Positions 12,393 to 39,783 of a stretch of 64,000 nt of DNA are shown here, in pieces. The first letter of the stretch is position 1; the number at the start of each line of letters is the position of its first letter. The notes below the pieces were generated by a model that worked only from the letters and a program-made list of their open reading frames with translations, made no database searches and was not told the DNA's origin. Source of the DNA: Escherichia coli (GTDB lineage Bacteria > Pseudomonadota > Gammaproteobacteria > Enterobacterales > Enterobacteriaceae). The stretch is from NCBI RefSeq assembly GCF_041248615.1, contig NZ_CP158425.1; one strand, 5' to 3'. The translations under genes were made by a program, and so were the position numbers.

Positions 12393-12488
12393 TCCAGCGA
12401 CACCCCCTGCGGCTCTACTACCGGGCCGCAGTCTGCTCCTGCCCAGATGGTGCCAGTGGTGTAATGAATTTGTTTAATAAGGCTAAGT

Positions 12489-13091
12489 ATGATGAATAAA
12501 GAACAACTAATCGACAAACTGGAACGCGTGGTATGTGGTCAGTACTCCTACGAAATGCAGGAGCTTGCGTATTCGGCCCTCTGCTGCATTAAAGGCACCC
12601 CGGACGACTGCGCTAAGTTCCCTGTTACGCGTCCGCTGCCTGACACCTTAGTGGACGTATGGGACGAAATCGGGCAATACCTTGGCACAGGCAAAGCCAT
12701 TGAAACTCGCAGTTGCGGCGTTTCGCTTCTGCTTCATGGACACTGCTACGATTCAAATCATGTGCTTTACTGGCGCAATGCTGGCGCACTTCCAGCAGCT
12801 TGCGATACGCCACTGGCTGGTGGGTCTCGCAAACTGTTCACCTGCTCAGCCTGTGGAGTGGACGGTCTGGATGAACCACCTGAAACCAGTTGCCACTGCT
12901 GCACAGAGGGGGCCCACTGGGTTGAGAGCAGGCTCTTCACCTCCGGGCAGGCAGACCCTGAAGAATTTAGACCCGTGGCGGTCGTGAAAGAGTGTGCAGG
13001 CTCAACGCCGGATGATCGGCTCATCTGGAGTGTGATTGAACAGCTCAACGGCGAACTGGCGGAAGGCGATAAACTATTTAAGCGACGCTGA
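12489..13091 (+). CDS. cysteine-rich hypothetical protein
   Basis: 200-aa ORF with many Cys/His residues. Confidence 0.45.
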   Translation: MMNKEQLIDKLERVVCGQYSYEMQELAYSALCCIKGTPDDCAKFPVTRPLPDTLVDVWDEIGQYLGTGKAIETRSCGVSLLLHGHCYDSNHVLYWRNAGALPAACDTPLAGGSRKLFTCSACGVDGLDEPPETSCHCCTEGAHWVESRLFTSGQADPEEFRPVAVVKECAGSTPDDRLIWSVIEQLNGELAEGDKLFKRR

Positions 13092-13144
13092 CAGATCACG
13101 GCAGCATTTATAACAGACGAACTCCAGAATAATTTAAAGCAACC

Positions 13145-13501
13145 ATGAACATGAAAAAGCCCAAAGCTGCATTACAGAATGCCATGAAAGAAGATGTGCC
13201 AGCTGTGACACAGATTCAGATGCGATCTACGGTTTCCAGAAAGGTTCGCTATGTAAAACAGGCAAATCGAGAGGGTCTGAAATTATCTGAGTGGATGTCG
13301 CGGCATCTCGACGCTGTCTGTGATACCGCAGATGAGATTCATAAAGGCAAACGCTCAACTCCGGTTGCGCCTGGGAAGATTCCCCCAGAGGTATACCAGG
13401 TGATATACGATCAGTGCGGCGGGTTCGTGGAGTGTGATGCTAATGCCCAGGTTATCTGGGAAGCCTGCCGTAATGCCATTCTTAACGGAGACAAAGGGTA
13501 A
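13145..13501 (+). CDS. putative ribbon-helix-helix DNA-binding protein
   Basis: QIQMRSTVSRKVRYVKQANREGLKLSEWM has a beta-strand then helix pattern; paralog of ORF 38999..39256. Confidence 0.4.
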   Translation: MNMKKPKAALQNAMKEDVPAVTQIQMRSTVSRKVRYVKQANREGLKLSEWMSRHLDAVCDTADEIHKGKRSTPVAPGKIPPEVYQVIYDQCGGFVECDANAQVIWEACRNAILNGDKG

Positions 13502-13531
13502 ACGGCAGGTATCGCCTGTCATTTTACCCTT

Positions 13532-13750
13532 GTGAGGACAATACTGATGAACCATGAGAGCCGAACTGTATACCTGAACACGGCCATTGAGGCCCTGCTG
13601 AAAGCTGAGGCGGCTCTGAACGATCTGGCATTAGCCTATGAGCTTAAACCTGATGAAAAGGCAAGCGCATGCCATCCCAGAACCGGCACACTTTCCACTG
13701 CGTCCCAGGTAAAAAAACTCCGCCGTGTCCTTGAGAAGCAGAAGGTATGA
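13532..13750 (+). CDS. hypothetical small protein
   Basis: 72-aa ORF. Confidence 0.3.
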   Translation: MRTILMNHESRTVYLNTAIEALLKAEAALNDLALAYELKPDEKASACHPRTGTLSTASQVKKLRRVLEKQKV

Positions 13751-14063
13751 AGGGCTGCATCAGCCAGGCCCGGATATAAATACATGCTCTGCCAGGTGAG
13801 TACCACTGCCCGGTAGCCGAATGATAAGTTTTGATTTCACGGTTGCAATTTCTCCCTCTGGCATCACTGCTCCACGATGCACCCCGATCAGCTTAGCGTC
13901 TGAAAATGAAGATGCACCGGACCTGCATGAAGCGGAACGGTGCCCAGCTGAGTGTTTGTGGGCACAATGAACCGCAATTTCATGATGGGAATGAAAGATG
14001 GCTGGTGGCCCGCTGATATGAACGCTTACCCTGCATAACGTTACTAACCACAATCTTTTCACT

Positions 14064-14099
14064 AAAAGAAAAAAGGGTTCCTCCGCTTTAGAGGAACCC
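14064..14099 (-). terminator. rho-independent terminator
   Basis: GGGTTCCTC/GAGGAACCC stem with T-run on the minus strand; a second GC-rich hairpin at 14141-14161. Confidence 0.5.
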
Positions 14100-14168
14100 T
14101 TTCAAAAGGTGCCGATGGCATACTAATCCACACCCTGAAAAGAGGGGGGTTGCCCCCCTCTTTGTCAG

Positions 14169-14327
14169 CTACTTACCGGATTCGTAGGCCAGGATAGCAA
14201 ATACCTCCCTTGTTCCGTCTTTCATCCGCAACTCGCAAAGCGAGTTTCGTGTGAGCCAGGTGAATATCAACAGCGTTAAACAAACTATTAATATGCACAA
14301 AACAATGGGTTGGTTCGGCATTTTCAT
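14169..14327 (-). CDS. small membrane protein
   Basis: Hydrophobic 52-aa core of ORF 14169..14468; start uncertain. Confidence 0.3.
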
Positions 14328-14681
14328 GGCCTTCTTCTCCTTGCATTTAAGCAGGCAAGAGGCTACGCTGTGTGTGACTAGCATACAGGGGCCTCGGGTT
14401 AATTGAAAAATTACTCGGGGCTTTCTGCTTTTACCACAGTCAAACAGTGTTACCGCTGGCTGGGGCAAAAGCCTCCAGCACCAGCGTCATTATATCACTC
14501 TGCCCTGATCAGCCAAACACCCTGCCTGCATAAATCATTGATTTATAATTTATTTGACATGAGTCACTTCCGGTTGTCGGAGACAGTCTTTTTACACTAA
14601 AGAAAAGGGTAACGGGCAGCTGCTTGGTCGGAACATACAGTGCAGTTCCTGCCCGTTTAATTTCCGGATGCAATGGTAGGA

Positions 14682-15287
14682 TCAGGAGGCACTGGTTCCG
14701 TTGATTAGGGAAAGCTTATGTGCCTGAATACGGCTGTATTCGAGATGGGATGGAATATTACAGATGCGCTCCAGTCGATCATGCAGCCTCGTGTAGGTCA
14801 GTCGATGAATACCGGACATTTCATCAAGTAGCCAGCGCTTGATGTAAGGGTTACAGGAAAGCCGGGCAAGATCGTCGTCATCCACTTCGTCAAAGAACCA
14901 GTACTGCTCCATCGGGACTACCTGAAATATCCACGGCCGGGGATAGTCCCCTGTGACAACCAAAAACCATGCGAGAAAGCATAGACACAGCTCAACGATC
15001 ATCAGCATCGAAAATTGCGAATAACTTAGACCAGGCACATAGGGTGAACTATCCGCAACATACCCCCTGAACAATTCCGCCACAAGGTAGCCCAATAGCG
15101 ACAAGGCCAGCATCAGGGTCAGGATTAATCCCCCATTAAACGCTACCGAAGCCTTTTGAACCCGATCAGGTGCTGTCCGGCTGCGATAGTTGGTCACTAC
15201 TCTTTCTACAAGTGCCCTTATGGCAGCCTGTTCTTTACTGACATCAGCTCCGGAAAAACCGGACGGGCTTTTATTTAATTCAGTCAT
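14682..15287 (-). CDS. membrane protein
   Basis: 201-aa ORF with three hydrophobic segments. Confidence 0.5.
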   Translation of the reverse strand: MTELNKSPSGFSGADVSKEQAAIRALVERVVTNYRSRTAPDRVQKASVAFNGGLILTLMLALSLLGYLVAELFRGYVADSSPYVPGLSYSQFSMLMIVELCLCFLAWFLVVTGDYPRPWIFQVVPMEQYWFFDEVDDDDLARLSCNPYIKRWLLDEMSGIHRLTYTRLHDRLERICNIPSHLEYSRIQAHKLSLINGTSAS

Positions 15288-15502
15288 ACCCCACTCCTGT
15301 TATGTGCTCTACTGAACAAACACGTAGATCATACAGAGCTCACGGACGCACTCCTGCCAGATAAAGGAGGGAATTTGGCTGTAAGACGGTTAGCCAACAG
15401 TTCAGGTTATGCGTGGGATCCGGCCAGTCAGAAAGGATTCCGTTATTAACAGGCAAGGTTAAAGGCAGATGGACGTTGAAATTGTGGATGCTAAAAGGGG
15501 TA

Positions 15503-15784
15503 TTACTCTTTTTCCTGCATAGCGGCTTTTTCAGCCCGGGTGGCCAGGCGAGCATTTCCGAAAGGTTCACGGACAAGCAGGGGCTTCTCCTTCTTCCAGC
15601 CCCTGATAGCCGTTTCTCCAAAACGACGTGGTGCATTGCCGTTCCAGCGAGCAATCACATGATTATCATGAATTTCTATAATGACAACGGGGTGGACAAT
15701 GACCGTTGTAATGGTGGTATTTCCCATTTTGGTACGGGTTACAGACCAAACCTGCATCCCGGATTCCAGCTGGCTGATTTTCAT
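15503..15784 (-). CDS. hypothetical protein
   Basis: 93-aa ORF with AAGGA RBS; overlapping alternative frames judged less likely. Confidence 0.4.
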   Translation of the reverse strand: MKISQLESGMQVWSVTRTKMGNTTITTVIVHPVVIIEIHDNHVIARWNGNAPRRFGETAIRGWKKEKPLLVREPFGNARLATRAEKAAMQEKE

Positions 15785-16158
15785 ATTATATCCTTAAGCC
15801 AACACGAACTGCGCCACAAAAATTAATGTGGCGCAATTTACCATAAACAATAAACATCAGATACCCGTGAAGAGATTTCCCTTTATTTTAAAATTCTTCT
15901 GGAGAAAAAATGATATTTCCAGAAGAAGTCAGCGAAATTCAGAAACGGCCATCACAATGGTGCTGCGCTGACGCTGGCGTTCTGCCTTGCGCTGCCTGCG
16001 GCGATAGATCTATTTTGCGCTGACGTAAGGGCAGTCCTCACGGGTATACCAGCAGCAGCCGCAAGGTTCGGGCCGGGGTTTTCCGGCAAGTCCAAATGGT
16101 TTCATCAAGTCACCTTTTTAATATTTTTAATGGCAAGATACTTCCCTAACACATTGTT

Positions 16159-16470
16159 TTATCGCATATAACGCTGTTGCATAAACAGATACAGATAACC
16201 CTCAGGAGAAAACATGCAAAGGTTATCAGTGATAACCGCATCCAGATACCGAGTGTCAGTCTGTAAACGTTTTATCACCAGAAAATGTGCTGCCGCAGCC
16301 TTAATGCCAGAACTACCGTTTACAACATTATGTATACCCGCTTCGAATAACGAACGAGCATGAATTACCTTTTCCCGGGCCGCTTCGATCTCCGCATTAA
16401 TAACGCATTGCCGCGCCTGGATGACTGCCTCTCCGGTTAAATCGCGGAAATTCATTAGAGATGTGATCAT
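16159..16470 (-). CDS. hypothetical protein
   Basis: 103-aa ORF preceded by the GGTTATT box and TTATAAT. Confidence 0.45.
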   Translation of the reverse strand: MITSLMNFRDLTGEAVIQARQCVINAEIEAAREKVIHARSLFEAGIHNVVNGSSGIKAAAAHFLVIKRLQTDTRYLDAVITDNLCMFSPEGYLYLFMQQRYMR

Positions 16471-16692
16471 GATTAACTCTCCAGATTATGTGGAATCATT
16501 ATAACAACTGGCATCCCGCCACAAATAACCTGAGAAAAATTCTTTGAAATATTCCTATATATAAGGAATTACAGTCGGAAAAGAAACGATGAAATAGCGC
16601 CGACCGCTTAAAATCGATAAATTAAAATGGACGGCACTGGAATGAAAAACTGAAAGTAGTAAGACCGTAATTATCCTTCACGGATGTAAGCT

Positions 16693-16893
16693 TTATAAGA
16701 GGAGTACTGGCAAAGCTTTGCCAAGTACTTCGGCGGTTGTGTCTACGATTTTACGGATGTCATCGATCTGCGAAGGCTTATTCAACACCACCGTAAAAAG
16801 CTCTCCTTCGTTATCAGCCTGCTCGCAGTTTCCGTATCGGCTCCCGTCGTACAGCTGCACAATACGTGACATAGAAGACTTTGTTTGTTTCAT
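16693..16893 (-). CDS. hypothetical small protein
   Basis: 66-aa ORF. Confidence 0.35.
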   Translation of the reverse strand: MKQTKSSMSRIVQLYDGSRYGNCEQADNEGELFTVVLNKPSQIDDIRKIVDTTAEVLGKALPVLLL

Positions 16894-16932
16894 GGCTTTG
16901 CACCTGCTTTTAGGCAGTTTGGTTACTGGTTA

Positions 16933-17157
16933 TCAGAAGCTGGTTTCATGCGCTTCCGGCTGGGACACGAACTGGTATTTGACGCCGCCAGGCACACCTA
17001 CTGCTTCGGCAATAGAGTCGCAAAGCCGCGATAAATCATTTAGTGTCATCGGATATTCAATATCTACAGAATATAAAGCACCTGCATTTTCAGCATCTTC
17101 GATGTTTTTATACTGGGCACTAAATATAGCAATGGTCTGAATTTCGTGGTTATGCAT
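16933..17157 (-). CDS. hypothetical protein, paralog of 23435..23674
   Basis: Shares EYPMTLNDLSRLCDSIAEAVGVPGG with IEHPMTLNDLSLLCESVADAVGAPGG. Confidence 0.45.
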   Translation of the reverse strand: MHNHEIQTIAIFSAQYKNIEDAENAGALYSVDIEYPMTLNDLSRLCDSIAEAVGVPGGVKYQFVSQPEAHETSF

Positions 17158-17211
17158 GAACCGGTCCTTATTAAATTATAAAAGCCACCCGAGAGTGGCC
17201 TGAGTTGAAAC

Positions 17212-17415
17212 TTAAATCTGTGAAGTATTTTTGAGAGATTTTTTGCGATCCAGATGCCGGGCAACAATGGTTCCGATAACAAGTAGCATGATGACCGCAC
17301 TGAAGAAGGTGCTGTCAGGGACGCCCTGGAAAAAATCACTGAAACTGTAAACAATAAAAATCAATGCGCAAAAATAGAAAACGATACGAACATAAGGGGT
17401 AAAAAACATTTTCAT
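17212..17415 (-). CDS. small membrane protein
   Basis: 67-aa hydrophobic ORF. Confidence 0.4.
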   Translation of the reverse strand: MKMFFTPYVRIVFYFCALIFIVYSFSDFFQGVPDSTFFSAVIMLLVIGTIVARHLDRKKSLKNTSQI

Positions 17416-17594
17416 CGGTTGCCTTCCATTCAGGGAGAATTCTCAGTAATTACATCACACCTGAAGAGAAACTATTTTCGTATAAATGAGCATTTTCGAC
17501 ATATCAGAGGGGGGGTTTACTCATAAATGAGGTAGTAAGGGTCACACTTGAGGTGAAAGTTACTTTCCTGGCTGCGAACGAACTATCTCAAATG

Positions 17595-17888
17595 TTAGAG
17601 GTGTGCGTTCGCCTTGAGAGCCTCATGCCCTGAGGAGCTCAACTTGAGCCGATAGTATAAACCTGGCTCCAGATGGCTTGCTGGCTGGCATAACTCCACG
17701 AGGCCGAGCCGGAACAGGACCGGAGAGCTCCTGCACGTCACATCATCAGGATTCCCCATAAACGTACGCCGTTCTCTGGCCCGTCTGAAATTGCCAGAGA
17801 TATCATAGACCGTGCCGGATGCCATCCGTCGTAACACGTAAATCTGTGCCATTGTAAGCTTCTGGGCGGAACTGCTTAAACCTGACAT
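17595..17888 (-). CDS. hypothetical protein
   Basis: 97-aa ORF. Confidence 0.4.
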   Translation of the reverse strand: MSGLSSSAQKLTMAQIYVLRRMASGTVYDISGNFRRARERRTFMGNPDDVTCRSSPVLFRLGLVELCQPASHLEPGLYYRLKLSSSGHEALKANAHL

Positions 17889-18178
17889 ACCTTCCCCTCC
17901 TTATATAAAACAATCCGCCAGCAGCTCGACTGGCGGACAATGTTTGACTGGCAACAGCAAGGACATACTATTTAGTGACAAGTTTGATCTTGGTTTCACT
18001 CATTCGAAGTCGAAACTCCTGAAAACCCTGCTCTACCGCTAACTCCAGCCACTCAACGGGAATGGTATAGCTACAATCAGACCCACCCAAAGCGGCATCA
18101 CAAGCGTAATCCCAGTCCTCATCCTGAACCGCCCCGGGAATCCTGGAGACTAAACTTCCTGAGAAAGAGGTAAACAGG

Positions 18179-18505
18179 ATGACTAAAAATACTCGTTTTT
18201 CCCCCGAAGTCCGTCAACGGGCAGTCCGTATGGTTCTGGAAAGTCAGAGCGAATATGACTCACAATGGGCGACAATTTGTTCCATTGCTCCAAAGATTGG
18301 CTGTACGCCGGAGACTCTGCGTGTCTGGGTTCGCCAGCATGAGCGGGATACCGGGGGCGGTGATGGAGGGCTCACCACCGCTGAACGTCAGCGTCTGAAA
18401 GAGCTGGAACGTGAAAATCGTGAACTGCGCCGCAGTAACGATATCCTTCGCCAGGCTTCCGCTTATTTTGCGAAGGCGGAGTTCGACCGCCTCTGGAAAA
18501 AATGA
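18179..18505 (+). CDS. IS3-family transposase OrfA
   Basis: 108-aa product recognised from memory as IS629/IS1203 OrfA. Confidence 0.9.
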
Positions 18506-19392
18506 TGCCACTGCTGGATAAGCTGCGTGAGCAGTACGGGGTCGGACCGCTATGCAGCGAACTGCATATTGCCCCGTCAACGTATTACCACTGTCAGCAA
18601 CAGCGACATCATCCGGATAAACGCAGTGCCCGTGCGCAGCGCGATGACTGGCTGAAGAAAGAGATACAGCGCGTATACGATGAAAATCACAAGGTATACG
18701 GTGTGCGTAAAGTCTGGCGTCAGTTGTTACGGGAAGGTATCAGAGTGGCCAGATGCACTGTGGCACGTCTCATGGCGGTTATGGGACTTGCCGGTGTTCT
18801 CCGGGGTAAAAAGGTCCGTACGACCATCAGCCGGAAAGCCGTTGCCGCAGGCGACCGCGTAAACCGTCAGTTCGTGGCAGAACGACCTGACCAGCTGTGG
18901 GTGGCTGATTTTACTTACGTCAGCACATGGCGGGGCTTCGTCTATGTGGCGTTCATCATTGATGTGTTTGCCGGATACATCGTGGGGTGGCGGGTCTCAT
19001 CGTCCATGGAAACGACATTCGTGCTGGATGCACTGGAGCAGGCGTTATGGGCCCGTCGACCGTCCGGCACGGTCCATCACAGTGATAAAGGTTCTCAGTA
19101 TGTATCGCTGGCCTACACACAGCGGCTTAAGGAAGCCGGATTACTGGCATCAACAGGAAGTACAGGCGACTCGTATGACAACGCGATGGCGGAGAGCATC
19201 AATGGTCTTTACAAAGCGGAGGTAATACACCGTAAGAGCTGGAAAAACCGTGCAGAAGTGGAACTGGCCACACTCACGTGGGTGGACTGGTATAACAATC
19301 GACGATTGCTGGAAAGGCTGGGCCATACTCCTCCGGCAGAAGCAGAAAAAGCTTATTATGCTTCCATCGGAAACGATGATCTGGCAGCCTGA
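18502..19392 (+). CDS. IS3-family transposase OrfB (integrase core)
   Basis: 296-aa product; -1 frame relative to orfA with a poly-A stretch at the junction. Confidence 0.9.
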
Positions 19393-19434
19393 GTTCACAG
19401 ATAAAACACTCTCCAGGAAACCCGGGGCGGTTCA

Positions 19435-19772
19435 TCCAGTTTTGGATTCATCCCCTGGGCGTAAGCCACAGTATCGCGGGATGCGGGAGAGCCCTCAAGC
19501 TCAGCATTAGTGATCAGGTATACACCATGACTGTGCGCGAGAAGCACTTTTGGCACCAGATGTGTGCTGGCAATTTTTGAGGATGAGGGAAAGAAAACCC
19601 TACCAGCTTTACGCGCCTCTTCTTCAGTCTGTCCCTCAGCGTTAAGGAGGGCTCCCCCCGGATAGCATGCCGGGTCATAGATCTGATCTGCGGTGACCGA
19701 AAACGTTTTTGCGGTGCGAATTTCTTCGATCAGTTTATTAATATCCGCCATTTCAAATACGAGAGTGGTCAC
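19435..19772 (-). pseudogene. N-terminal part of a gene interrupted by IS629 copy 1 (remainder at 17968-18121)
   Basis: ORF 19395..19772 takes its last 13 codons and stop from the IS; removing the IS and one TCC restores an open frame to a stop at 17968. Confidence 0.4.
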
Positions 19773-19776
19773 AGGC

Positions 19777-20124
19777 TTACTCTCCCTCTTCAGTGGACAA
19801 CATCAGATACTTTGTTGCCAGCAGAAGCTCTCCCACATCCTTGAGGGACAATTCAGCTTTGCCTTCTACGGCAAGCTGCAAGCGCTGTCGAATTGCATGA
19901 ACAGAATCTGAAGATAAAGATGCCATTTTGCGCAAAACGGCATTAGCCTTTTCTACAGCAGGATACAGAATTTCTGAGTTGGTATTATCTTCGTCATTAT
20001 CAAAGATAATTTCAGAATCCATATTGATGTTATCTTCAAGCCAGCTTGAAAGCACTTCAAGTAATGACATCACCTTTTCAATTTGCATATCGCCTCCTCT
20101 GTTAATGTGAAACAAATATAACAA
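19777..20124 (-). CDS. hypothetical protein
   Basis: 115-aa acidic ORF with GAGGAGG RBS. Confidence 0.45.
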   Translation of the reverse strand: MLYLFHINRGGDMQIEKVMSLLEVLSSWLEDNINMDSEIIFDNDEDNTNSEILYPAVEKANAVLRKMASLSSDSVHAIRQRLQLAVEGKAELSLKDVGELLLATKYLMLSTEEGE

Positions 20125-20142
20125 AGTGGCTTACCCGGCTAA

Positions 20143-20198
20143 TAACCTGAGCAGAAAGTTTTCGCACTTTGTTTGAAAACAACTTTTCTGCTCAGGTT
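20143..20198. promoter_or_regulatory. inverted repeat (about 17-bp arms) overlapping the GGTTATTAGC promoter box
   Basis: AACCTGAGCAGAAAGTT ... AACTTTTCTGCTCAGGTT immediately upstream of the 19777..20124 promoter. Confidence 0.45.
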
Positions 20199-20603
20199 AA
20201 TGTTAAAGTCGCTGTGTAAAAGATAAAGGGCACTAAAGATGATTTAAGCATCAAACAGACTAAATCGGATTCCGTCTTTTATATCGCTTTTAAAATAGAA
20301 TGAATGAAATATAAATTTAGCGTTTATGATTGAACGCTGTAGAGGTTGATTTATCCAGTGATATTCAGTTTGGGGCCTTAAAAAGGTTTTATTTTGGATT
20401 CGAATTACAAAGGGAGCACCGACATTTTTCTGGGGGCTCCCGCAGAGAAAAAGCGGTGAGGCTATGAAGACGAAGAGGAGGTATTCGACGAAATACTGTA
20501 TGGCCACAGGAGAGCTTCAGCACCCATATCCTGCCGTCTCGCTCGCCTGTAATGATTTCAACATGTACAACGTCATACCACGTAGTTGTATTTCTCACTT
20601 TGT

Positions 20604-20924
20604 TTATGCTTCCTGACACCGTGTGAACGCAATCTTCGTCTGGATGCGTTCATAGATGGAAAACTGCCTTTCAATGGAACCGGCATTAGACAGTAATTCA
20701 TGAAGCTCAGCAGAGTCTGTATCGGGAACGATAGCTACAGAAACTCCATATCTCCGTCCAATTTTGATTAGGTGCGCAAGCTGTTCTTTTTCGGATTCTG
20801 TGAGCATTGCCAGATCTCTTCCGGACACCTGCTCTATAAACGAACCAAGGTTTTTGGGAAAAAAGGGTTCGGCATCAGAGTTATGTGCTGGGCGCGTCTG
20901 CGGCTTATCGAAGCTATTGGGCAT
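20604..20924 (-). CDS. hypothetical protein
   Basis: 106-aa ORF. Confidence 0.4.
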   Translation of the reverse strand: MPNSFDKPQTRPAHNSDAEPFFPKNLGSFIEQVSGRDLAMLTESEKEQLAHLIKIGRRYGVSVAIVPDTDSAELHELLSNAGSIERQFSIYERIQTKIAFTRCQEA

Positions 20925-21103
20925 GAATAGAACCTATACAGTTAGAGAACTGGAGAATGGATAAAGACTCTATGAAAATCAGTTGTGCTACACTCGAATG
21001 CTAATCAAGCTTTATGATGGCTTTAGTAGGGATGGCCGTCAACTTAAACCGATAAGAAGGGAGCCATTTATCGTTAAAGTAACTTTCCCGGATGATGCTC
21101 TTT

Positions 21104-21331
21104 TTACGAAATAAGTTTCTCACACTCCTGTATAAGAGTCGCCCTGGAACGAGATCGACTGGCTTTGCTTAATGAAGAGCGTAGTTGATGTTCATCAACC
21201 CCATCAGCGATAAACTGACCGATTTTTGTTTCAAGCCGCTGCATTGCCTCGTAAAGCTTGGCATCCGCATTATTTTTAAGAAACCTCAGTATATAATCAG
21301 CAATAATTTGGACGGGAGTGAACTTATACAT
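21104..21331 (-). CDS. hypothetical small protein
   Basis: 75-aa ORF. Confidence 0.3.
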   Translation of the reverse strand: MYKFTPVQIIADYILRFLKNNADAKLYEAMQRLETKIGQFIADGVDEHQLRSSLSKASRSRSRATLIQECEKLIS

Positions 21332-21558
21332 TATGTATCCTTAAGACGTTGTGTTAAATGATTCAAAAAAATTTATAACCAGACGTAAATTATTATACAT
21401 AAGTAAGCACTTTAGCTAACAAGCTGGAGGAGTGAATTTCGGTTAGCAACTATATTTTAGAAGCTGATTGCTGAATAGACAAAGCCCGGCTTACCGGGCA
21501 TTCATTTAATTAGATGCTAGAAATCTGACCCGTCGTCTGACTTTTATTCCAGGCAGAG

Positions 21559-31996: not shown

Positions 31997-32425
31997 TCAA
32001 CCCTTAATGAAATTGTGCCCCCAGGTGTTAGGCTTAAATGCCTGCTCTTTGATATATGTTTTCATTACCTTGCAGGTTTTTTTCAGGGCTTTGGTATTGG
32101 CATCGGTTACTGGGATAAAATGGCGAGAATGACGGTTTTCCCGGTACTGCTTATCAGCGTTTGGGTCAATTGCTTCGCTTTGCAGGAGCCCTTCGTGCCT
32201 GCCAATTACTATTACGTAGTTCATTTCACCTGAAACACGATCCGTGAGTAATTGAAGGGAAATATCAGCTGCTCGCGTGGCCTGGCTTGCAGATATTTTT
32301 GCATGCAAGAAAGCCCCCTTTCTGAATTTGGCCGGAGTTAGCCCTGTAATATCCTCAACACTAAAATTAAGTGAGGAAAGAATTGAAAATAAGTCGCAGC
32401 TAATGACTTCAGTATTATTAGGCAT
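31997..32425 (-). CDS. hypothetical protein
   Basis: 142-aa ORF. Confidence 0.4.
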   Translation of the reverse strand: MPNNTEVISCDLFSILSSLNFSVEDITGLTPAKFRKGAFLHAKISASQATRAADISLQLLTDRVSGEMNYVIVIGRHEGLLQSEAIDPNADKQYRENRHSRHFIPVTDANTKALKKTCKVMKTYIKEQAFKPNTWGHNFIKG

Positions 32426-32519
32426 TTTACCCGTCCCCGTCCATATTCATGATACGGTAATGATACCAGGTCGATATCATTACCTAATAACTTGGTGAAA
32501 GAAAATCTGTAATTTTTAG

Positions 32520-32897
32520 TTAACTAAAATTAATAGTCTCAATACTGCTCAAGAATTCTTTTTTTACGTCCGGTGTAAAAGGTATACGTTCAATGTATTT
32601 ATAAAGTGTCGCAAATGTTTTGGGTTCAATGTTTCGGGAGATAATGTCATCAATCGGATCTTCGAACATATTGATAAAGATATCGACATGCTGCTCTCCG
32701 CTTTCTGATGCCTTTGAAAGAAGACTGACCACTTCAATGTAGCGATTATCCTGCTCTGCAATGAACAACCAGTGCCCTTCGTTAAAGGCGGGTGCAGCGC
32801 TGTAGCGTTTAACAACAATTTCTGAAAGATTATATCCTGCCTGATTCAGCAGATTATTAAAGTTGAGTTGAGTTGAAATCACGTCTAACGTTTTCAT
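32520..32897 (-). CDS. hypothetical protein
   Basis: 125-aa ORF with AAGGAGG RBS, TATAAT and the GGTTATTAGC box upstream. Confidence 0.45.
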   Translation of the reverse strand: MKTLDVISTQLNFNNLLNQAGYNLSEIVVKRYSAAPAFNEGHWLFIAEQDNRYIEVVSLLSKASESGEQHVDIFINMFEDPIDDIISRNIEPKTFATLYKYIERIPFTPDVKKEFLSSIETINFS

Positions 32898-32961
32898 AAA
32901 ACCTCCTTTTCATCTGTACTTATTATACTGTTACCCAACCCCCAGCTAATAACCTCCCAGC
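32898..32961 (-). promoter_or_regulatory. promoter with GGTTATTAGC box and TATAAT
   Basis: Minus strand reads GGAGGTTATTAGCTGG-16nt-TATAAT-RBS-ATG. Confidence 0.5.
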
Positions 32962-33304
32962 AAATTTTCAGAAAAAAAACACCGCCTTTTATTTAAGATT
33001 GAACACATCCTTTTTAAATACCAACAATGATTATGAAACCACAATGTAAGTGAAGCGCCATTATGGAAAAGTAACTTTTGTGCAGCTCATAAATTTTATT
33101 TATTAGTTACGTTCCTTTGTCTTGTGGTCGAAGTTCATCAGGCGAGGCCTAAGAAGAATATGTGTGGTTTCAGCCAATGCGGTGATCGGGCATTATAATT
33201 TGGTCGGGCTATTATACGTGGGTAAAGGTAGTGGTAGGGAGAGGATCAGGTTAAATTGCATTTTCCCGGTTGCCTTCCCTGGCCTACCGGTTTCAGGTCA
33301 GACG

Positions 33305-34486
33305 CTAAGACCAGCGGTAATACTTAAAGTAGTCCTCATTTACAGCCAAAAACTCCCTTAAACCGTTCATTAATCCCTTTTCAAACGCTGTAACGATAAA
33401 CCGGTATCCGTCCAGTGTTTCAATGTAGTAGATCCCGCCCGGTGTTATTCCAACATGCAACACCTCGGCTGTCATCATAAACTGGCCTTCCGGAAAATCA
33501 TGCGACAGGTATATAAAACCCGTCGTGGCCGGTGCGGGTGTGGCATTCACTAAGACACCGTTAAACTGCTGCCCGTGCCTCGCCGGTACAAGCTCACTTC
33601 CCCTGGTTGACTTATCGAGCAGCCCCTTAACATCTTTTTGCTCTTTAGATGAGGTATAGCCCCGCACATCACTCCCATCACCTGGGCGAGAGCCGGTGCC
33701 GACATGTGCAAGACGACGGTAAGCGCTGCGCATATTGATGTGGCAGGATGCCCCGGCTCTACCCTGAAGCCTTACGCCAAAATCTTCGCAAAGTAATAAA
33801 ATCTGACGTAGCTGGTGTTCATACACGGACGCAGAAAGTGAAAGGTTGAAACTGGAAAAGGTCAGTTCTAAAACCTTTTCCCGTTTGTCATTGAAATGTG
33901 CTTCCAGCCTGATGATTGGCTTTTCCGACATTGCAAAAGCTTTGTCCGTTGCTCTGTACCGGCATTCATCTCCGAAACATTCTTCAACAACGCTGGCTAT
34001 AACCGTGTCGTGATCGCCATCTTCCGGAGCTGGCACAAAGATTTCAAATTGTGCCGGTGTCTCCGGCTCCAGCAGAACGGGATATAAACGCGGAGAATTA
34101 AGCAATGCGCATTCAGAATTAATGAGCTTAACCCAGGCGCTTTTGTCGTCCGGATCCTTAAGCTGCTGTCCAAGGTTATCGCAAAAGTCTACTATCTGAC
34201 GGGTATGCTCATCCGTGACTGCACAGATCAGGTTAAGACCATGCGTGGCCATACTCAATTCCCGGGTTCGGGACTGGGAATTGATCGACCAGGGGTTAAG
34301 TGAAAGCGAAATAGGGCTTATGGAAGGGACGACCGTCTCATTCTGCAAATCTGTAAGCTGGCAGTTCGCAGTAGGCTTCGGGGAAAGGGTACTAAATATG
34401 TAACTTGCCTGTTGTTTAGTACTGGCCTGGATATAAAACATCGCGTCCATGCTTGTATCCCGGGATGAAATTGAAAATAGCTTCAT
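33305..34486 (-). CDS. hypothetical protein immediately downstream of the HigB-like gene
   Basis: 393-aa ORF starting 9 nt after the toxin stop; no helix-turn-helix recognisable. Confidence 0.5.
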   Translation of the reverse strand: MKLFSISSRDTSMDAMFYIQASTKQQASYIFSTLSPKPTANCQLTDLQNETVVPSISPISLSLNPWSINSQSRTRELSMATHGLNLICAVTDEHTRQIVDFCDNLGQQLKDPDDKSAWVKLINSECALLNSPRLYPVLLEPETPAQFEIFVPAPEDGDHDTVIASVVEECFGDECRYRATDKAFAMSEKPIIRLEAHFNDKREKVLELTFSSFNLSLSASVYEHQLRQILLLCEDFGVRLQGRAGASCHINMRSAYRRLAHVGTGSRPGDGSDVRGYTSSKEQKDVKGLLDKSTRGSELVPARHGQQFNGVLVNATPAPATTGFIYLSHDFPEGQFMMTAEVLHVGITPGGIYYIETLDGYRFIVTAFEKGLMNGLREFLAVNEDYFKYYRWS

Positions 34487-34494
34487 TTTTAACC

Positions 34495-34791
34495 TTAATG
34501 GATGAGCGATTTATAGTCATGTGCTGACAAATGGACATTATGTGCGCCATCATTCCATTCAAAGAATAATCGATACTTAGAGTTTACTCGAATGGAGGAA
34601 TAACGGTTTGACGTCATTCTTAAGCGTTCATAACGCAAGCTGTTGGATAATAACTCCCGCTCACTCTGGACATTATCCAGCGTTTCGAGTCGACACAGAA
34701 TCGCGTTAATAATTTCAGAAGGAATACCTGCCGTTGTTTTTCCATTACGGAAGAACTTTTCAAGCCGTCTGTCTTTAAATGAATGGATCAT
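34495..34791 (-). CDS. higB: HigB-like (RelE-fold) toxin
   Basis: MIHSFKDRRLEKFF ... SSIRVNSKYRLFFEWNDGAHNVHLSAHDY matches the HigB killer-protein pattern. Confidence 0.65.
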   Translation of the reverse strand: MIHSFKDRRLEKFFRNGKTTAGIPSEIINAILCRLETLDNVQSERELLSNSLRYERLRMTSNRYSSIRVNSKYRLFFEWNDGAHNVHLSAHDYKSLIH

Positions 34792-34840
34792 AGTTCCTCC
34801 GTAATAATTGACCTTAAAATTAAATTAAAAGGGCTTTGAA

Positions 34841-35311
34841 TTAATGAATCCCTAAAATGCGGGCGGCGACTGCCAGCTGCTTATCACTTAACTGACGCTG
34901 GTGGGTTAAAGAAGACTTAAGGCTTTCCAGAAAATTATTACTGCTGGATTGCTGGGTGATTGCATCAACCATTTTTTGATGAGATCTGCACCATGCATTG
35001 AACGCAGAGTTGTGGGCGTTTTCAGTCCTCAAACGCTCGTTTTGCAAGGATGCTGACACTTTGCGGGCAGCTTGAGCATTAATGCGGTACAGCGCATTCA
35101 GCGTGTAAGAAGTGCGGGTCGTTTCGAGGCTGTAACCCGTGGCTTTACAAGCCATACAGCGACTTCTATAAAAATGCTTACGCTCTCCCCGACCATTGCA
35201 TTTATCGCAAAGAATACGAAAAGTATATTCCGCAGTACCTTTTACAGAATCAACACAGCGGATTTTTGCGCTGGAGATTTCAATTCCACTGCGATCATAA
35301 TATTTGGTCAT
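34841..35311 (-). CDS. zinc-ribbon protein with two CxxCxGxG motifs
   Basis: CDKCNGRG and CMACKATG; GGTTATTAGC promoter box upstream. Confidence 0.5.
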   Translation of the reverse strand: MTKYYDRSGIEISSAKIRCVDSVKGTAEYTFRILCDKCNGRGERKHFYRSRCMACKATGYSLETTRTSYTLNALYRINAQAARKVSASLQNERLRTENAHNSAFNAWCRSHQKMVDAITQQSSSNNFLESLKSSLTHQRQLSDKQLAVAARILGIH

Positions 35312-35745
35312 AATGTGATTCCTCCGGTTAGTTCTGGAGTAATCATGACAGAATGAATCTACTGGCTAATAACCTGAGAGTAAATATTTTAAAAAAACAT
35401 TGAGAGAGGGTCTGCAAATTTATACACGAAGGATTCAAATATAATTTTGTTTAAAAAATTAAGAGCATTCTGAAGTAAAAGTGCATCAAAAAGCATTCAT
35501 GGATAAATCATGTACTGGTGCCAGCCATTTAAACGCGGGCATTGTTCCGGAGTGATTAAACGGTTTAGCATCATAGATTAAAACCAAAAGGAAGGCGTCC
35601 TTCCCGTCTCGGGAATATTACTTTCCCGTTTGCAATTTAAGAGCCACTTAATGAGAAAGTAATAATTAAGTCATGCTCAACTCTACATATTACATTGAGG
35701 ATGGCGTAACAGGGTACGGCATACTACCGCACCCTTCTGAAGAGC

Positions 35746-38163
35746 TTATGTTTGAGGGAATTCTATAGCAAATGTGGCCGTGCCAGATTGACCACTTACA
35801 GCGGGAGTAACGGGATACGTGCGCTCTTCACCATTACCAAGATCCAGTGACAGCGATTTAGTTTCACCAGGCTGGACCGTAACTCCGGCAACCGTAACGC
35901 CGAACTGGGCATTTTTCTGAACAGTCAGGGTTCCGTTTAACTGTCCGGTAATGATAGAACCGTCCTGACGCCGCAACACACTGGTTCGGATGATGGCCAG
36001 CGGCGTGTTGTCCGTTGCTTTCAGTGCTACGGCTGTGGCCAGCGTCTTGAGATTATCCAGCATAATCAGATTCGCAGGCTGGTAGGTAAAATTAAGCGTT
36101 TTAGTGGTCCGGTTACCTGATTCGTCAATAGCCAGTGCCTCCAGATGATACATCTGTCCCGATTCGTCAGTGTTGGGGAAGATTCTGGGGTATTCCGGAA
36201 TAAAGACATCCTTGGATAACGGCGTGAATGCCAGGGTGACCTTTTCAGAGTTAGGTCCACCAGCGAGCTGAAGCGATGTCAGGGAAGCATCCCCAGAGGC
36301 ATCAGTAACGCTTATGCGAAGGTTCTCAAGCCCTTTAACCAGTTTTCCTTCTGCGTCTGCGCCATTAAAACTGAACGCGATAACCGGAAGCGTTGAGTCA
36401 ATTTTCAGCGGTGCATTAAGCGTTTTGGTTCCGGTGTTTCCAACAAGATCCGTGGCAGAGACGCTAACCACCGTATAATCCCCGTCCGGTAGACCAGCGT
36501 ATGAGAAGGTGGCGTTTTTGGTTTTATAATCGCTTTCACTGACGGTCACAGGCTTCAGCGTGAAAGGTTCCCCCCGGGCATTTTTAAGGGTGGCTTCGAA
36601 AACTTTGGTATCCCAGTAGCTGATGTTCCAGGCGTTGACGCGATCATTATCGGTGGCCGTCATAGTGATTGTCTTGGAGGCCTTGTTTACCTGAGCGACA
36701 TTAACCACCGGTGGGTTGTTATCCCAGATAACCGTAAAATTACCAGCAAGCGCATCGAATATGCTGTCACCATCTTTTCCCGAGTAAAGGTGCAGATACT
36801 CAAATCCTTTGTCACTGGTGTAGTTGAAGTTAACCGTCATCTCGCATGAACTTTGTCCGATAGGTATAGTGCAGAACCAGGCTGCATTTTTTACCGTTCT
36901 GAACTTTTGCACGTATGGTCGGGGTTCAGCGGTTACCTTTATGCGGCTAATGGTGGCGGTTTTAACGCTGATTGAGGCCTGAGTTAACCACTCACTGGTA
37001 TCACTCCGGTACATCTCTTTAGCCACTATCTTCGGGGCTATTTCCATCGCCGGGGCTGGAGTGAAGTTGAGGGAGTTATGATGAATTCGTCTTACTCCTC
37101 CTGCCAGAGTCTGGAATTCATGATAAGTATCCCCCACATTGGGATATATGTATTTGAAAGTATAAATATTATAAGTGCTATCGGACGTCTGGAAATTCGA
37201 GTCCGCCCAGCCATATTTGGAACCGTTAACAGCAGTAAAGTCACTTTTTTTCCTTAATACCCGTACGGAAATAGGGTTCTGGAAGACGGTCATGCCAGAC
37301 TGATAAGTGACCCATGATCCGGTAGTGGCGTCCTGCACCTGGATGATATCGTCAGGCTTAACCCGATCAATTACGCTTCGGCGGCTTAGTTCGATCCTGT
37401 TTCCCGCTTTGTCATAAAGGTAGATCCCCACTTTATATTCAGAGCGGTTTTCCGGTGCCAGGGCATTGCTGCTTGCGTCGGCGACTTGAACGGTTACGCT
37501 ACCTTCCACTGTATTAATTTCCGCTGGCTTTTTACGCTCCACTCCAGCGGCATCGGTTATGAAATATTCAGCATTAGCAAGCCCGGAACCTTTATCACTC
37601 AGTCCATTAAAGACCAGTGCCTGGACGCTGGCGTACTGCATACCGGCTGGTACTGAAGTGAAGATCGCTTCGCTGCCAAAGTTCCACCCGTTTCTCGTAT
37701 AACTTATGGTACCCGTTGCCGGAGGCGTTCGGTCAATTGCAAGCGGGTAATCCTGCCGGGAGACCTCCTTCCCTTGCAAGTCGGTAATCACCTCTCTGAG
37801 GGTGAAGCTATCTTCTCCCATCGCTGGTACGGTCAGAGTCTTGCCGTAATAATCAAAGCCTGTCGAAGATGTGGTACGGTCATCTACGGTAACCAGGCTG
37901 CTTTTCGTGCTCCAGATGAGGCTCCCGTCACTTTTCAGCAGACTGAGCGTAATATAACGGTCCAGACCGGAAATAACGGCAACGTCAAAGCTCGTTACCG
38001 GATTAATCCATACGGATGCAGGCGATACGGTCTTTTTAACGTTCAGGGTATCTTTAAAGCTGAATTCTGCGATTTCAGCGGAAGCTCCTGCGCTGAAACC
38101 TGCAAATGCAATAAGCAGGGCTAGTTTGATTTTCATGGGTTGTCTCCTGATCAGGTTCCCCAT
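35746..38163 (-). CDS. large secreted protein, paralog A of an about 800-aa family
   Basis: Sec signal peptide ending ASA; conserved LISGLDRY and C-terminal LTVQKNAQFG blocks shared with two other ORFs. Confidence 0.6.
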   Translation of the reverse strand: MGNLIRRQPMKIKLALLIAFAGFSAGASAEIAEFSFKDTLNVKKTVSPASVWINPVTSFDVAVISGLDRYITLSLLKSDGSLIWSTKSSLVTVDDRTTSSTGFDYYGKTLTVPAMGEDSFTLREVITDLQGKEVSRQDYPLAIDRTPPATGTISYTRNGWNFGSEAIFTSVPAGMQYASVQALVFNGLSDKGSGLANAEYFITDAAGVERKKPAEINTVEGSVTVQVADASSNALAPENRSEYKVGIYLYDKAGNRIELSRRSVIDRVKPDDIIQVQDATTGSWVTYQSGMTVFQNPISVRVLRKKSDFTAVNGSKYGWADSNFQTSDSTYNIYTFKYIYPNVGDTYHEFQTLAGGVRRIHHNSLNFTPAPAMEIAPKIVAKEMYRSDTSEWLTQASISVKTATISRIKVTAEPRPYVQKFRTVKNAAWFCTIPIGQSSCEMTVNFNYTSDKGFEYLHLYSGKDGDSIFDALAGNFTVIWDNNPPVVNVAQVNKASKTITMTATDNDRVNAWNISYWDTKVFEATLKNARGEPFTLKPVTVSESDYKTKNATFSYAGLPDGDYTVVSVSATDLVGNTGTKTLNAPLKIDSTLPVIAFSFNGADAEGKLVKGLENLRISVTDASGDASLTSLQLAGGPNSEKVTLAFTPLSKDVFIPEYPRIFPNTDESGQMYHLEALAIDESGNRTTKTLNFTYQPANLIMLDNLKTLATAVALKATDNTPLAIIRTSVLRRQDGSIITGQLNGTLTVQKNAQFGVTVAGVTVQPGETKSLSLDLGNGEERTYPVTPAVSGQSGTATFAIEFPQT

Positions 38164-38270
38164 GATACTTTTTCAGTGTTCGAGATCTTTTCGGGAAAAT
38201 AGCTAATTTTAATGTTTTTCTTTTCTGCCCGGCGGGACTTGTTTTGTTTACGTAAATGCAAAAATACAAG

Positions 38271-38285
38271 AAAAGTTACTTTTTG
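38271..38285. promoter_or_regulatory. palindromic motif AAAAGTTACTTTTTG (candidate operator)
   Basis: About 110 bp upstream of the secreted-protein gene start; followed by GATAGG as in the copy at 53061. Confidence 0.5.
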
Positions 38286-38539
38286 ATAGGGTTAAAATTA
38301 GGTTTTCCCAATTTCCAGAAGCAAGCGAAAGCAGAACTAGCTTAATAGCCATTAAAAACGCCATGCCTATTGATAAATAAAGCTCATTACATTTAATGAT
38401 TAGAGCATTTAAAACTGAATTAGCGAAAGAATTTCGGTTAGCTTTTTATTGCATGAGTGAAACAGTATTAATAATCCGGAGCCATCAGAACGTACTCTAA
38501 AGACTCCGGTATACAGATATCTTGCCAGTAAAAATGGCC

Positions 38540-38791
38540 TTACTCCTCATCATCCCCCAGCGCTTTTTTGATGGCGCGGCGGCGGGCTGCATCACCTACA
38601 CGATATCCGACTGAATATACGTCATTCAACCGGCGCAGAATAAGATTTATTTCCTCATCCTGAATGTAGGCAGGTAAACACAGAACTACGTCGCCATCTT
38701 CATCATAGACTCGAACAACTTCCTTCTGCCCATCTCGCTCGCGAATAATCTGGACATGCTGAACCCTGGTGTAATCTGGGATTACGCTCAT
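38540..38791 (-). CDS. hypothetical protein
   Basis: 83-aa ORF. Confidence 0.4.
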   Translation of the reverse strand: MSVIPDYTRVQHVQIIRERDGQKEVVRVYDEDGDVVLCLPAYIQDEEINLILRRLNDVYSVGYRVGDAARRRAIKKALGDDEE

Positions 38792-38998
38792 TTTAAATAT
38801 CTCTCTTTAATTGTTGTTACCAGTTAGCTATAAGCCGGTTTATTCAGGTACTCAGTGTTCTGCACAGCAATCGCCTGTTCGTGGATCATTAACACTGCTG
38901 GGCGGGCTTTAAGGCGCTTGCTGGTGAGAAAACGCTTCACTTCTTTAAGTTCGCTGCCAGCCGACAGCATATTGAAGACATGCTGTTTGAGACTGTTG

Positions 38999-39256
38999 TT
39001 ATTTTTGGCCACTTGTTTCTCCATCATCTTTGTACATGGTTGTGTCGGGCTGGCCTGCCAGATCACACACGTTATCCATATGCTTTTGGACCCAGTCTGT
39101 TAGACCCAGGCCTTCGGCCTTTGCCTGATTGACGTAACGCAGTTTCCGATCAGGGGTAACCCGCATCTGTAGTTGTGCCGTCGCTGGAACCGCCTCTTTC
39201 AGGGCGTTAAGGCCCCTCTGATCACGGGCCTGATTTGATGGTTTACCGTTTGGCAT
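38999..39256 (-). CDS. putative ribbon-helix-helix DNA-binding protein
   Basis: LQMRVTPDRKLRYVNQAKAEGLGLTDWV; paralog of 13145..13501. Confidence 0.4.
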   Translation of the reverse strand: MPNGKPSNQARDQRGLNALKEAVPATAQLQMRVTPDRKLRYVNQAKAEGLGLTDWVQKHMDNVCDLAGQPDTTMYKDDGETSGQK

Positions 39257-39680
39257 CTGAGGTATCGCTCTCCCGGCGAGCGGTGGACGACTCTAATTCT
39301 TTTGCGATTGCTTTATCTACGGCATCCAGCTGCATAGCAAACTTGATTTCAAGCGAACAGCGTAATGCCTTCAGGGCGCGTTCTTTGGTGCTGTATTGTG
39401 GTATGCCGTTCTGGCTACCATTCATGCCTCGCATGCGGCGGGAGGTTGCATCGACAACCTCTCCCTCTTCCCGTGTGCCGTGAACCGTAGTTCCGCTCCA
39501 TGTCGGATAAACAGTGCCAGTGGCGGTGTTGAAGCTCCAGCCGTTTTGGTATTCCCCCGAGACCTCTGGTACGGGCATATCGCGTTCAACGCTATAGTCA
39601 GACCAGCGTAAAGCGCGGTTTATTCTGGCCTGTGCCACCAGCTCATCATAGGCGGCTTGTTCTTTTTTATTCATCGCCAT
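39243..39680 (-). CDS. hypothetical protein
   Basis: 145-aa ORF. Confidence 0.4.
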   Translation of the reverse strand: MAMNKKEQAAYDELVAQARINRALRWSDYSVERDMPVPEVSGEYQNGWSFNTATGTVYPTWSGTTVHGTREEGEVVDATSRRMRGMNGSQNGIPQYSTKERALKALRCSLEIKFAMQLDAVDKAIAKELESSTARRESDTSDAKR

Positions 39681-39783
39681 TTAGGGCAATCTCCTTAAAG
39701 GGGAATTAGGTGTTATATCGGTACGTAAGTGCTTTTCAGGCCTAATCTCTGACAAGGCCTGATGTGCCAGACTGCCGTTGCAT

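Follow-up and report, generated by a model that had tools for sequence, protein, structure and literature searches.

Anti-CRISPR-associated (Aca) regulators are small DNA-binding dimers whose genes form part of anti-defence operons, with conserved inverted repeats in or near the promoter that may recur at neighbouring operons (bioRxiv 10.64898/2026.07.27.740549). Control of the Aca2 type combines DNA and RNA binding and involves hairpins in the 5' untranslated region, and Aca14, a regulator of the ribbon-helix-helix (RHH) type, is associated with an AT-rich inverted repeat overlapping the -10 element and with no conserved RNA motif (bioRxiv 10.64898/2026.07.27.740549). An RHH domain also makes up the N-terminal region of AcrIF25 (PDB 8JDH/8JDI; Trost et al., 2024, Nature 632:375, as cited in PMC13131331). 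This domain is dispensable for anti-CRISPR activity, is replaced by a helix-turn-helix (HTH) in one homolog, and has been speculated to be a built-in regulator (bioRxiv 10.64898/2026.07.27.740549). The name AcrIF25 has also been used for an unrelated Acinetobacter HTH-plus-beta-barrel protein (PDB 8X24; bioRxiv 10.1101/2024.01.05.574328), which was not used as evidence here. In the present work we analyzed two small open reading frames (ORFs), ORF A (13145..13501, + strand) and ORF B (38999..39256, - strand), within a stretch of 64,000 nucleotides of the Escherichia coli contig NZ_CP158425.1 (hereafter the window). Both encode proteins with a predicted RHH fold that belong to the same sequence family as the N-terminal domain of AcrIF25, and both lie in operons that begin with a common promoter-leader cassette.

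The initial annotation had listed the two ORFs as paralogs, and the comparison of the proteins confirms this: A and B share 30 identities over 51 aligned residues (59%, BLASTP E=1e-21), a similarity far above chance. Their common core, xQ(I/L)QMR(V/S)T..RK.RYV.QA..EGL.L(S/T)(E/D)W...H(L/M)D.VCD, follows the pattern strand, helix, G-x-S/T turn, helix that is found in RHH proteins. ORF A encodes 118 aa (start at 13151 according to the Prokaryotic Genome Annotation Pipeline, PGAP; WP_000743060.1, hypothetical protein), with an RHH domain at residues ~18-60 (family profile match, E=2.8e-27) and a C-terminal extension of roughly 50 aa (residues ~70-118). ORF B, at 85 aa, is a minimal RHH protein (family profile match, E=1.1e-28). 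A six-frame search of the window with the family profile returned A and B, and no others.

The family was delimited by a HMMER scan with an eight-sequence profile at E<=1e-3. It comprises 217 cluster representatives, mostly of 55-90 aa, with the consensus GNxNAxKG..PA..(I/L)(Q/H)(M/L)RVTP..K.RYV.QA..EG(L/M)KLSEWI..HLD. The most conserved positions are the DNA-facing strand residues and the S/T motif at the N-terminus of helix 2, and family members carry the N-terminal arm motif GNxNAxKG. The smallest members (55-70 aa) consist of an RHH without any effector domain, and diverse C-terminal domains are found among the family. When 107 members were scanned against Pfam, 48 matched the NikA-like family PF21983 (best E=5.9e-8), 11 TacA1, 9 HicB and 6 RHH_10, with further matches to MobC_2, RelB and RHH_1; all of the matched families are RHH families. 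Taken alone, A and B have no significant Pfam match, the NikA-like match of B being at E=0.019. Among solved structures, the sole match of a profile built from the 107 sequences is to residues 4-46 of AcrIF25 (8JDH/8JDI, E=1.7e-10); the same domain scores E=1.3e-4 with the eight-sequence profile and E=0.09 with A alone. Judged by these profile matches, the A/B family is an unnamed, mobile-element-borne RHH branch, with the N-terminal domain of AcrIF25 as its only studied relative. Two members, P0022 (228 aa) and P0041 (259 aa), have four or three tandem RHH domains per chain, which by analogy with TraY or AvtR would give covalently linked dimers or tetramers.

Structure prediction agrees with the sequence profiles. 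An AlphaFold2 model of the B monomer (mean predicted local distance difference test, pLDDT, 63) contains two confident helices and leaves the strand unmodelled, as expected for an obligate dimer. Two copies of the domain were therefore joined by a Gly-Ser linker in the sequences of 54 family members. The single-chain dimer model obtained in this way has strand and helices at E14-20, H22-34 and H39-55, repeated at E86-92, H94-106 and H111-126, with pLDDT 83-89 in the domains and a predicted template modelling score of 0.66. In this model the two halves intertwine through an antiparallel ribbon of two strands, and the dimer can be superposed on RHH dimers of known structure. In the repressor Arc, the strand residues are Q9, N11 and R13; the outward strand residues of both A and B are Q-x-Q-x-R, which matches this pattern. 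The RHH-like fold and strand-then-helix core that had been proposed from the letters are thus borne out by profiles and dimer model alike, the predicted fold being an RHH of the CopG/Arc/NikA type. On this basis A and B are probably DNA-binding regulators. The regulatory part of the original proposal stands in that form, and its two specific assignments, to the recurring palindromes of the window and to an origin of transfer (oriT), do not, as set out below.

Side-by-side comparison of the regions upstream of the RHH operons revealed a cassette of ~100 bp with which both the A and the B operon begin; a generic repeat search of the two upstream regions had given nothing obvious. The cassette consists of a sigma-70 promoter with its -35 element inside an inverted repeat, a variable 5' hairpin (hairpin 1), an invariant GC-rich repeat, CCCGGCG-NNN-CCGGGC (CCCGG-CGNNN-CCGGG), which forms the second hairpin, and a ribosome-binding site. 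At the A operon it occupies 11345..11447 (+), followed by the ATG at 11448, which is preceded by a Shine-Dalgarno sequence. The inverted repeat, CTTCAATTGT-ATTG-ACAATAGAAG, lies at 11345-11368 around the -35 element (TTGACA, 11356-11361); the -10 element is CATAGT (11379-11384), hairpin 1 has the stem GGTGCG/CGCACC (11394-11410, z=-4.2) and the invariant element is CCCGGCGGTACCGGGC (11416-11431). At the B operon the cassette is found at 40309..40410 (-), with a Shine-Dalgarno sequence before the start codon (TTG 40308 or ATG 40299). Here the inverted repeat is imperfect (TTTGTTTGTATTGACAATCAAA, 40410-40389, around the -35 element), the motif TTGTATTGACAAT lies at 40405-40393, hairpin 1 has the stem TGGCGT/ATGCCA (z=-3.2) and the invariant element is CCCGGCGGCACCGGGC (40341-40326). 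In the whole window the motifs CCCGGCGNNNCCGGGC and TTGTATTGACAAT have exactly two copies each, one in front of either operon (expected 0.02 and 0.07 occurrences).

Outside the window, operons with an RHH gene in L006, L009, L010, L011 and L013 begin with the cassette as well, and L013 has three copies of it. A scan of viral contigs with CGCCCCGGCGNNNCCGGGC gave 120 loci, mostly chance matches in GC-rich DNA, and 19 of them hold the full cassette. In all 18 viral cassettes that could be evaluated, an RHH ORF of the family lies 85-1467 nt downstream on the same strand, the 19th contig being cut 350 nt past the motif, and none of the ~100 chance matches is accompanied by an RHH gene. The cassette is accompanied by an RHH gene of this family on IncHI plasmids, in P1-like phage-plasmids and in high-GC phages alike. 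In the latter, one small variable gene comes after the cassette, and next to it is encoded a ~145-aa protein with the family RHH at its N-terminus. In three of these contigs (L028, L046, L060) the protein behind the cassette, of 148 aa, is a full-length homolog of AcrIF25 (E=1.5e-41, residues 3-147), and in the other phages only the N-terminal domain is shared. The cassette is a previously undescribed, widely conserved cis element that links the A/B branch to AcrIF25 operons.

The two leader hairpins differ in how they are conserved. The sequence of hairpin 1 varies among instances, and when each sequence was folded separately and compared with shuffles it was the more stable in 20 of 24 cases (mean z=-3.1). 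The second hairpin is invariant in sequence and for this reason offers no covariation evidence, and its spacer is conserved asymmetrically as CG[G/T]NN. RNAalifold on a MAFFT alignment recovered only the invariant hairpin, with the variable one out of register, and an Rfam scan of both leaders returned no family.

Several further arrangements were seen around the cassette. Nine high-GC viral contigs (L025, L028, L031, L046, L058, L059, L088, L128, L142) share the order cassette, small variable gene, RHH, ~70-aa Cro-like HTH, small and large terminase; in these phages an inverted repeat that is different in every phage lies between a -35 element CTTGC[GA] and a -10 element TATAAT, and L088 has two cassettes in tandem. 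In the IncHI1B plasmid L013 (1955-2085, -) and the IncHI1A plasmid L018 (15991-16121, +), a two-hairpin leader precedes a gene of the DUF5417 type, and where other loci have the inverted-repeat promoter there is an AAAAGTTACTTT palindrome, so that both kinds of control element can be combined.

The RHH is the only protein that constantly travels with the cassette, and its DNA-facing residues are conserved; for these reasons we propose A and B as autoregulators of the cassette. On a slight balance of probability we favour the reading that they are Aca-like autoregulators of their own cassette-headed accessory operons, which may carry anti-defence genes, and that they serve neither the AAAAGTWACTTTT palindromes nor an oriT. 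An RHH dimer or tetramer would act in trans on the cassette in the manner of an Aca repressor. Its most likely target would be the invariant repeat, at about +25 to +45 in the leader, where two CCGG subsites approximately one helical turn apart could fit two RHH dimers. Alternatively, the promoter inverted repeat could be the DNA target, or the invariant sequence could be bound as an RNA hairpin, as for Aca2. In all these variants we infer the binding to DNA or RNA, the repression and the identity of the operator.

A number of observations weigh against such an autoregulatory role. ORF A is the third of four genes in its operon and ORF B the third of five, and such an internal position is unusual for autoregulators. 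The lineage of L003-L005 has no invariant repeat, and there the RHH gene is the first one behind the inverted-repeat promoter; one orphan cassette leader is kept in an IncHI1A plasmid that has no member of the RHH family. In the high-GC phages the promoter inverted repeat varies greatly and the RHH strand residues are constant, so that the RHH is unlikely to read this repeat there. The asymmetric spacer CG[G/T]NN and the covarying hairpin 1 point to an RNA-level element that a host factor or another protein could read, the RHH domain of AcrIF25 might serve for dimerisation only, and the action of A and B on the cassette is read from sequence and linkage.

The A operon (11448..13750, +) starts with the gene for a DUF5417 protein (11448..12392, +), followed by a 200-aa Cys-rich protein (12489..13091, +), ORF A, and a protein of 67-72 aa (13532/13547..13750, +). 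This gene set also adjoins a gene for a ParB-like HTH protein (ParB-HTH) in L013, where an A-like and a B-like gene occur in one cluster beside it. The B operon (38540..40308, -) encodes a 174-aa protein (39784..40308, -), a 145-aa protein (39243..39680, -; phrog_28248), ORF B, a protein of 61-80 aa (38824..about 39013/39066, -) and an 83-aa protein (38540..38791, -). The 174-aa protein represents an orphan family with the N-terminal signature MKPMLK..FF....LL..GF.P.FYTV..G.IG...FTDKNG.KQVEQVYSC. In five other loci on plasmids and phage-plasmids (L006, L009, L010, L011, L013) its gene is the first after the cassette and directly upstream of the RHH gene. The family has no Pfam match, no named relative and no relative of known function; a single PDB match, to a designed repeat protein, was rejected as spurious. 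Close homologs of B also occur in ~90-kb P1/P7-like phage-plasmids, beside DUF968, lpa, pacA, pacB and c1.

A segment of 1.9 kb (38249..40167) that covers most of the B operon is deleted in ~470 of the ~1,070 IncHI2 plasmids in PLSDB (~44%), for example in pHS13-1-IncHI2. The deletion is bounded by the microhomologies CTTGTTTTGTT and CCTGTTTTGTT, and also removes the palindrome at 38271. After this deletion the cassette promoter faces an Ig-like gene (35746..38163).

ORF B lacks annotation in at least two RefSeq records, which show either a gap of exactly its size or an extended overlapping downstream ORF. In the extended version, PGAP annotates an 80-aa ORF (38824..39066, -) that runs 68 nt into B; another RefSeq record has a 62-aa version of the downstream ORF starting near the stop codon of B, which fits a GGAG-N6-GTG start. 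The ATG of B overlaps the stop codon of the upstream 145-aa gene and the downstream GGAG-N6-GTG start overlaps the stop codon of B, an arrangement that allows all three genes to share a single operon with translational coupling. Conservation supports the reading frame of B: homologs at 70-87% identity are found elsewhere, and against a 94% variant the ratio of nonsynonymous to synonymous polymorphism (pN/pS) is ~0.36, the lowest of the three frames, on 9 substitutions only. A tblastn search of a phage collection with B gave no match. In the protein P0003 (114 aa, from a short Logan contig) ORF B is fused in frame with the downstream ORF, as if one A had been lost from the A-run CAAAAATAA at 39001..39012, at the end of ORF B; an error in sequencing, a genuine variant or slippage could each account for it.

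The C-terminal ~45 residues of ORF A (IPPEVYQVIYDQCGGFVECDANAQVIWEACRNAIL, 13352..13498) share 66% identity with a portion of a 93-aa ORF that stands by itself at a phage-plasmid locus (L011, 9759-10040), and residues 72-117 match phrog_5117. By sequence, this part of ORF A appears to be a mobile domain fused to the RHH. Its separate occurrence in L011 is consistent with a modular design of RHH plus effector, like that of AcrIF25.

The palindrome AAAAGTWACTTTT, for which A and B had been put forward as the best candidate binders in the window, is a prominent feature of its own. It occurs in 8 exact copies, and in 14 copies when up to one mismatch is allowed (0.2 expected), at positions 485, 5387, 10436, 10562, 23806, 28855, 33067, 38271, 43988, 46212, 52996, 53061, 59338 and 61202, which are mostly intergenic and upstream of minus-strand gene blocks. 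A gene for a 394-aa ParB-HTH protein (9162..10346, -; PF17762, E=7e-6; TIGR00180, E=5e-7; ParB structures, E=1.6e-4) is preceded directly by the palindrome, and the same holds for its homologs in all four lineages checked: there are two exact copies in IncHI2 (at 90 and 216 bp), two in IncHI1A, three in IncHI1B and six in a distant Klebsiella MOBH plasmid, where the homolog is only 35% identical. The full sequence of the IncHI1A plasmid pS159-CMY-227k has 40 copies with up to one mismatch, 24 of which are exact. AAAAGTWACTTTT is a backbone-wide element of IncHI/MOBH plasmids that is independent of A and B, and the ParB-HTH protein is the better candidate for binding it. By analogy, the combination suggests a global regulon of the KorB/OB type or a parS-like array in IncHI plasmids. 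Literature searches returned nothing relevant on the AAAAGTWACTTTT sequence, on IncHI together with ribbon-helix-helix, or on IncHI together with KorB/ParB-like proteins.

Binding of RHH tetramers to pseudo-palindromes of 13 bp is known from CopG. That A, B or both would bind AAAAGTWACTTTT as global plasmid regulators is in keeping with this property, with the strong over-representation and largely intergenic placement of the palindrome ahead of minus-strand blocks, and with the two copies in the 1.1-kb divergent region in front of the A operon. We nevertheless consider this very improbable in view of the distribution of the two partners. None of the six frames of pS159-CMY-227k encodes a member of the A/B family at E<=10 and the first 40 kb of the Klebsiella MOBH plasmid L022 contain 17 copies of the palindrome and no family member; conversely, nine phage-plasmid loci with homologs at 40-80% identity, P1-like ones with B homologs at 70-80% among them, have no AAAAGTWACTTTT. 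Also, the ~470 IncHI2 plasmids without B retain the palindromes, no copy is found within ~880 bp of the start of the A operon, a half-site with two mismatches is all that is present upstream of the B operon, and in every lineage examined the copies cluster ahead of the ParB-HTH gene. The other role that the initial annotation had considered, that of relaxosome accessory proteins of the NikA/TraY/MobC type marking a nearby oriT, is scarcely credible. It would draw on the NikA-like family being the top Pfam family among the relatives (48/107) and on the weak match of B to it. This match, however, amounts to 15.5 bits, below the gathering threshold of 27 bits, and A has none; the likeness to NikA and TraY reflects a common fold and not membership of a family. 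In related MOBH elements (SXT, IncA/C) oriT adjoins mobI. The gene order mobI, an ORF, mobH, traD in IncHI1A and IncHI1B places the MOBH oriT region ~6 kb before the start of the window, and by this analogy A would be expected ~19 kb and B ~45 kb away from it. The family is wholly absent from an IncHI1A plasmid typed as conjugative, and most of the IncHI2 plasmids with the deletion of B are still typed as conjugative. Its members also occur in P1/P7-like phage-plasmids, one of which is typed as non-mobilizable, and in phage contigs beside terminase genes, with no relaxase nearby.

The RHH could be mainly a dimerisation or adaptor module, with the cassette being an RNA element under other control (a host factor, or antitermination of the put/nut kind) and the linkage of the two reflecting common cargo. 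We regard this as rather unlikely, though it accommodates several of the points raised above against autoregulation. The RHH of AcrIF25 is dispensable for anti-CRISPR activity and an HTH can replace it (bioRxiv 10.64898/2026.07.27.740549), members of the family have diverse C-terminal domains and that of ORF A also exists as a stand-alone ORF, the covariation of hairpin 1 and the asymmetric spacer of hairpin 2 suggest a function at the RNA level, and an orphan cassette without an RHH gene exists. Replacement by an HTH, however, argues for DNA binding over mere dimerisation; the strand facing the DNA and the S/T motif of helix 2 are the most conserved parts of the protein, and members of 55-70 aa lack any effector domain. 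A role as RHH antitoxins in type II toxin-antitoxin pairs, with the toxin encoded by a small neighbouring gene, is improbable for A and B. Some family members do match the antitoxin profiles TacA1/DUF1778, HicB or RelB, neighbouring genes overlap translationally, the gene of the 174-aa family lies directly upstream of the RHH in several loci, as in toxin-first modules, and hok and relE/parE are present in the same region. Yet searches of Pfam, PHROGs, NCBIfam and PADLOC assigned none of the neighbours in the A and B operons to a toxin or defence family or to a known anti-defence one (an LmbU C-terminal match being sub-threshold only), and the gene downstream of the RHH is not conserved from locus to locus. 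In the window another gene separates the 174-aa gene from B, the constant partner of the family is a cis element and no protein, and the B operon has been lost cleanly from many plasmids. Autoregulation of cassette-headed accessory operons by A and B thus remains the reading that we prefer.

With regard to the plasmid setting, the window is part of an IncHI2 backbone, test stretches of which are 100% identical to pSTM6-275, pEGY1-MCR-1 and hundreds of IncHI2A/MOBH/MPF_F plasmids. Its beginning falls in traD, the gene for the coupling protein at the end of Tra1, of which it contains the final 551 nt, followed by ~36 kb of small hypothetical genes, mostly on the minus strand, and repHI2 at ~48-49 kb. 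Compared with pEGY1-MCR-1, an IS3-family element (18125..19431; transposase ORFs of 108 aa and 296 aa) interrupts a DUF3085 gene, and the IS421 copy of pEGY1-MCR-1 (window position ~14157) is absent.

IncHI2 plasmids rank among the main carriers of mcr-1 and multidrug resistance, and in this part of their backbone most genes are annotated as hypothetical and ORF B frequently has no annotation at all. The cassette provides two short, defined candidate targets, DNA or RNA, for A and B, and together with the RHH gene it offers a search handle for the guilt-by-association discovery of anti-defence cargo on plasmids, phage-plasmids and phages. The result for A and B also supports the proposal that the RHH of AcrIF25 may be a built-in regulator. 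More tentatively, and with considerable doubt, the RHH gene and two-hairpin cassette could together be a control system of the Aca-like kind, widespread and so far undescribed, by which islands of anti-defence genes are marked. If so, new counter-defence proteins would be found in the A and B operons (the DUF5417 protein, the 200-aa Cys-rich protein, the 174-aa orphan family, phrog_28248 and others), and ORF A would be a fusion of effector and regulator on the plan of AcrIF25. The RHH would then read the invariant CCCGG-CGNNN-CCGGG, possibly as an RNA hairpin, which would be an unusual activity for this fold.

Compared with the described RHH proteins, A and B stand apart from NikA of R64, TraY of F and MobC in falling below the Pfam threshold, in not lying beside a relaxase or oriT and not being conserved with the transfer system, and in belonging to a family that is present in non-mobilizable phage-plasmids and in phages. 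They resemble Arc, Mnt and CopG in size and in the polar-hydrophobic alternation of the strand with its terminal Arg (Q-x-Q-x-R in A and B, Q-x-N-x-R in Arc), and a tetramer on two subsites would be plausible for CCGG-N5-CCGG. In contrast to these repressors, the candidate operator is situated in the leader and does not span the -35 and -10 elements, members of the A/B family have the GNxNAxKG arm, and significant sequence similarity is lacking, with one family member matching RHH_1 at E ~0.01. The Aca regulators are approached in that conserved inverted repeats are located in the promoter or leader of the very operons that encode the candidate regulators; unlike the motif described for Aca14, the invariant element of the A/B cassette has a GC-rich sequence, forms part of the transcribed leader and comes together with a covarying hairpin. 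In the A and B operons no known acr or other anti-defence gene was recognised, and members fused or homologous to AcrIF25 are found elsewhere in the family. AcrIF25 itself differs in its Cas7f-mimicking, Cas7f-binding C-terminal domain, which A and B do not have: the alignments end by about residue 50, B is a bare RHH and the C-terminal domain of A is unrelated, so that no anti-CRISPR activity is implied for either. What A and B have in common with AcrIF25 is the N-terminal RHH of one sequence family, an architecture with a C-terminal domain behind the RHH in the case of ORF A, and the cassette behind which full-length AcrIF25 orthologs are encoded, the same with which the operons of A and B begin.

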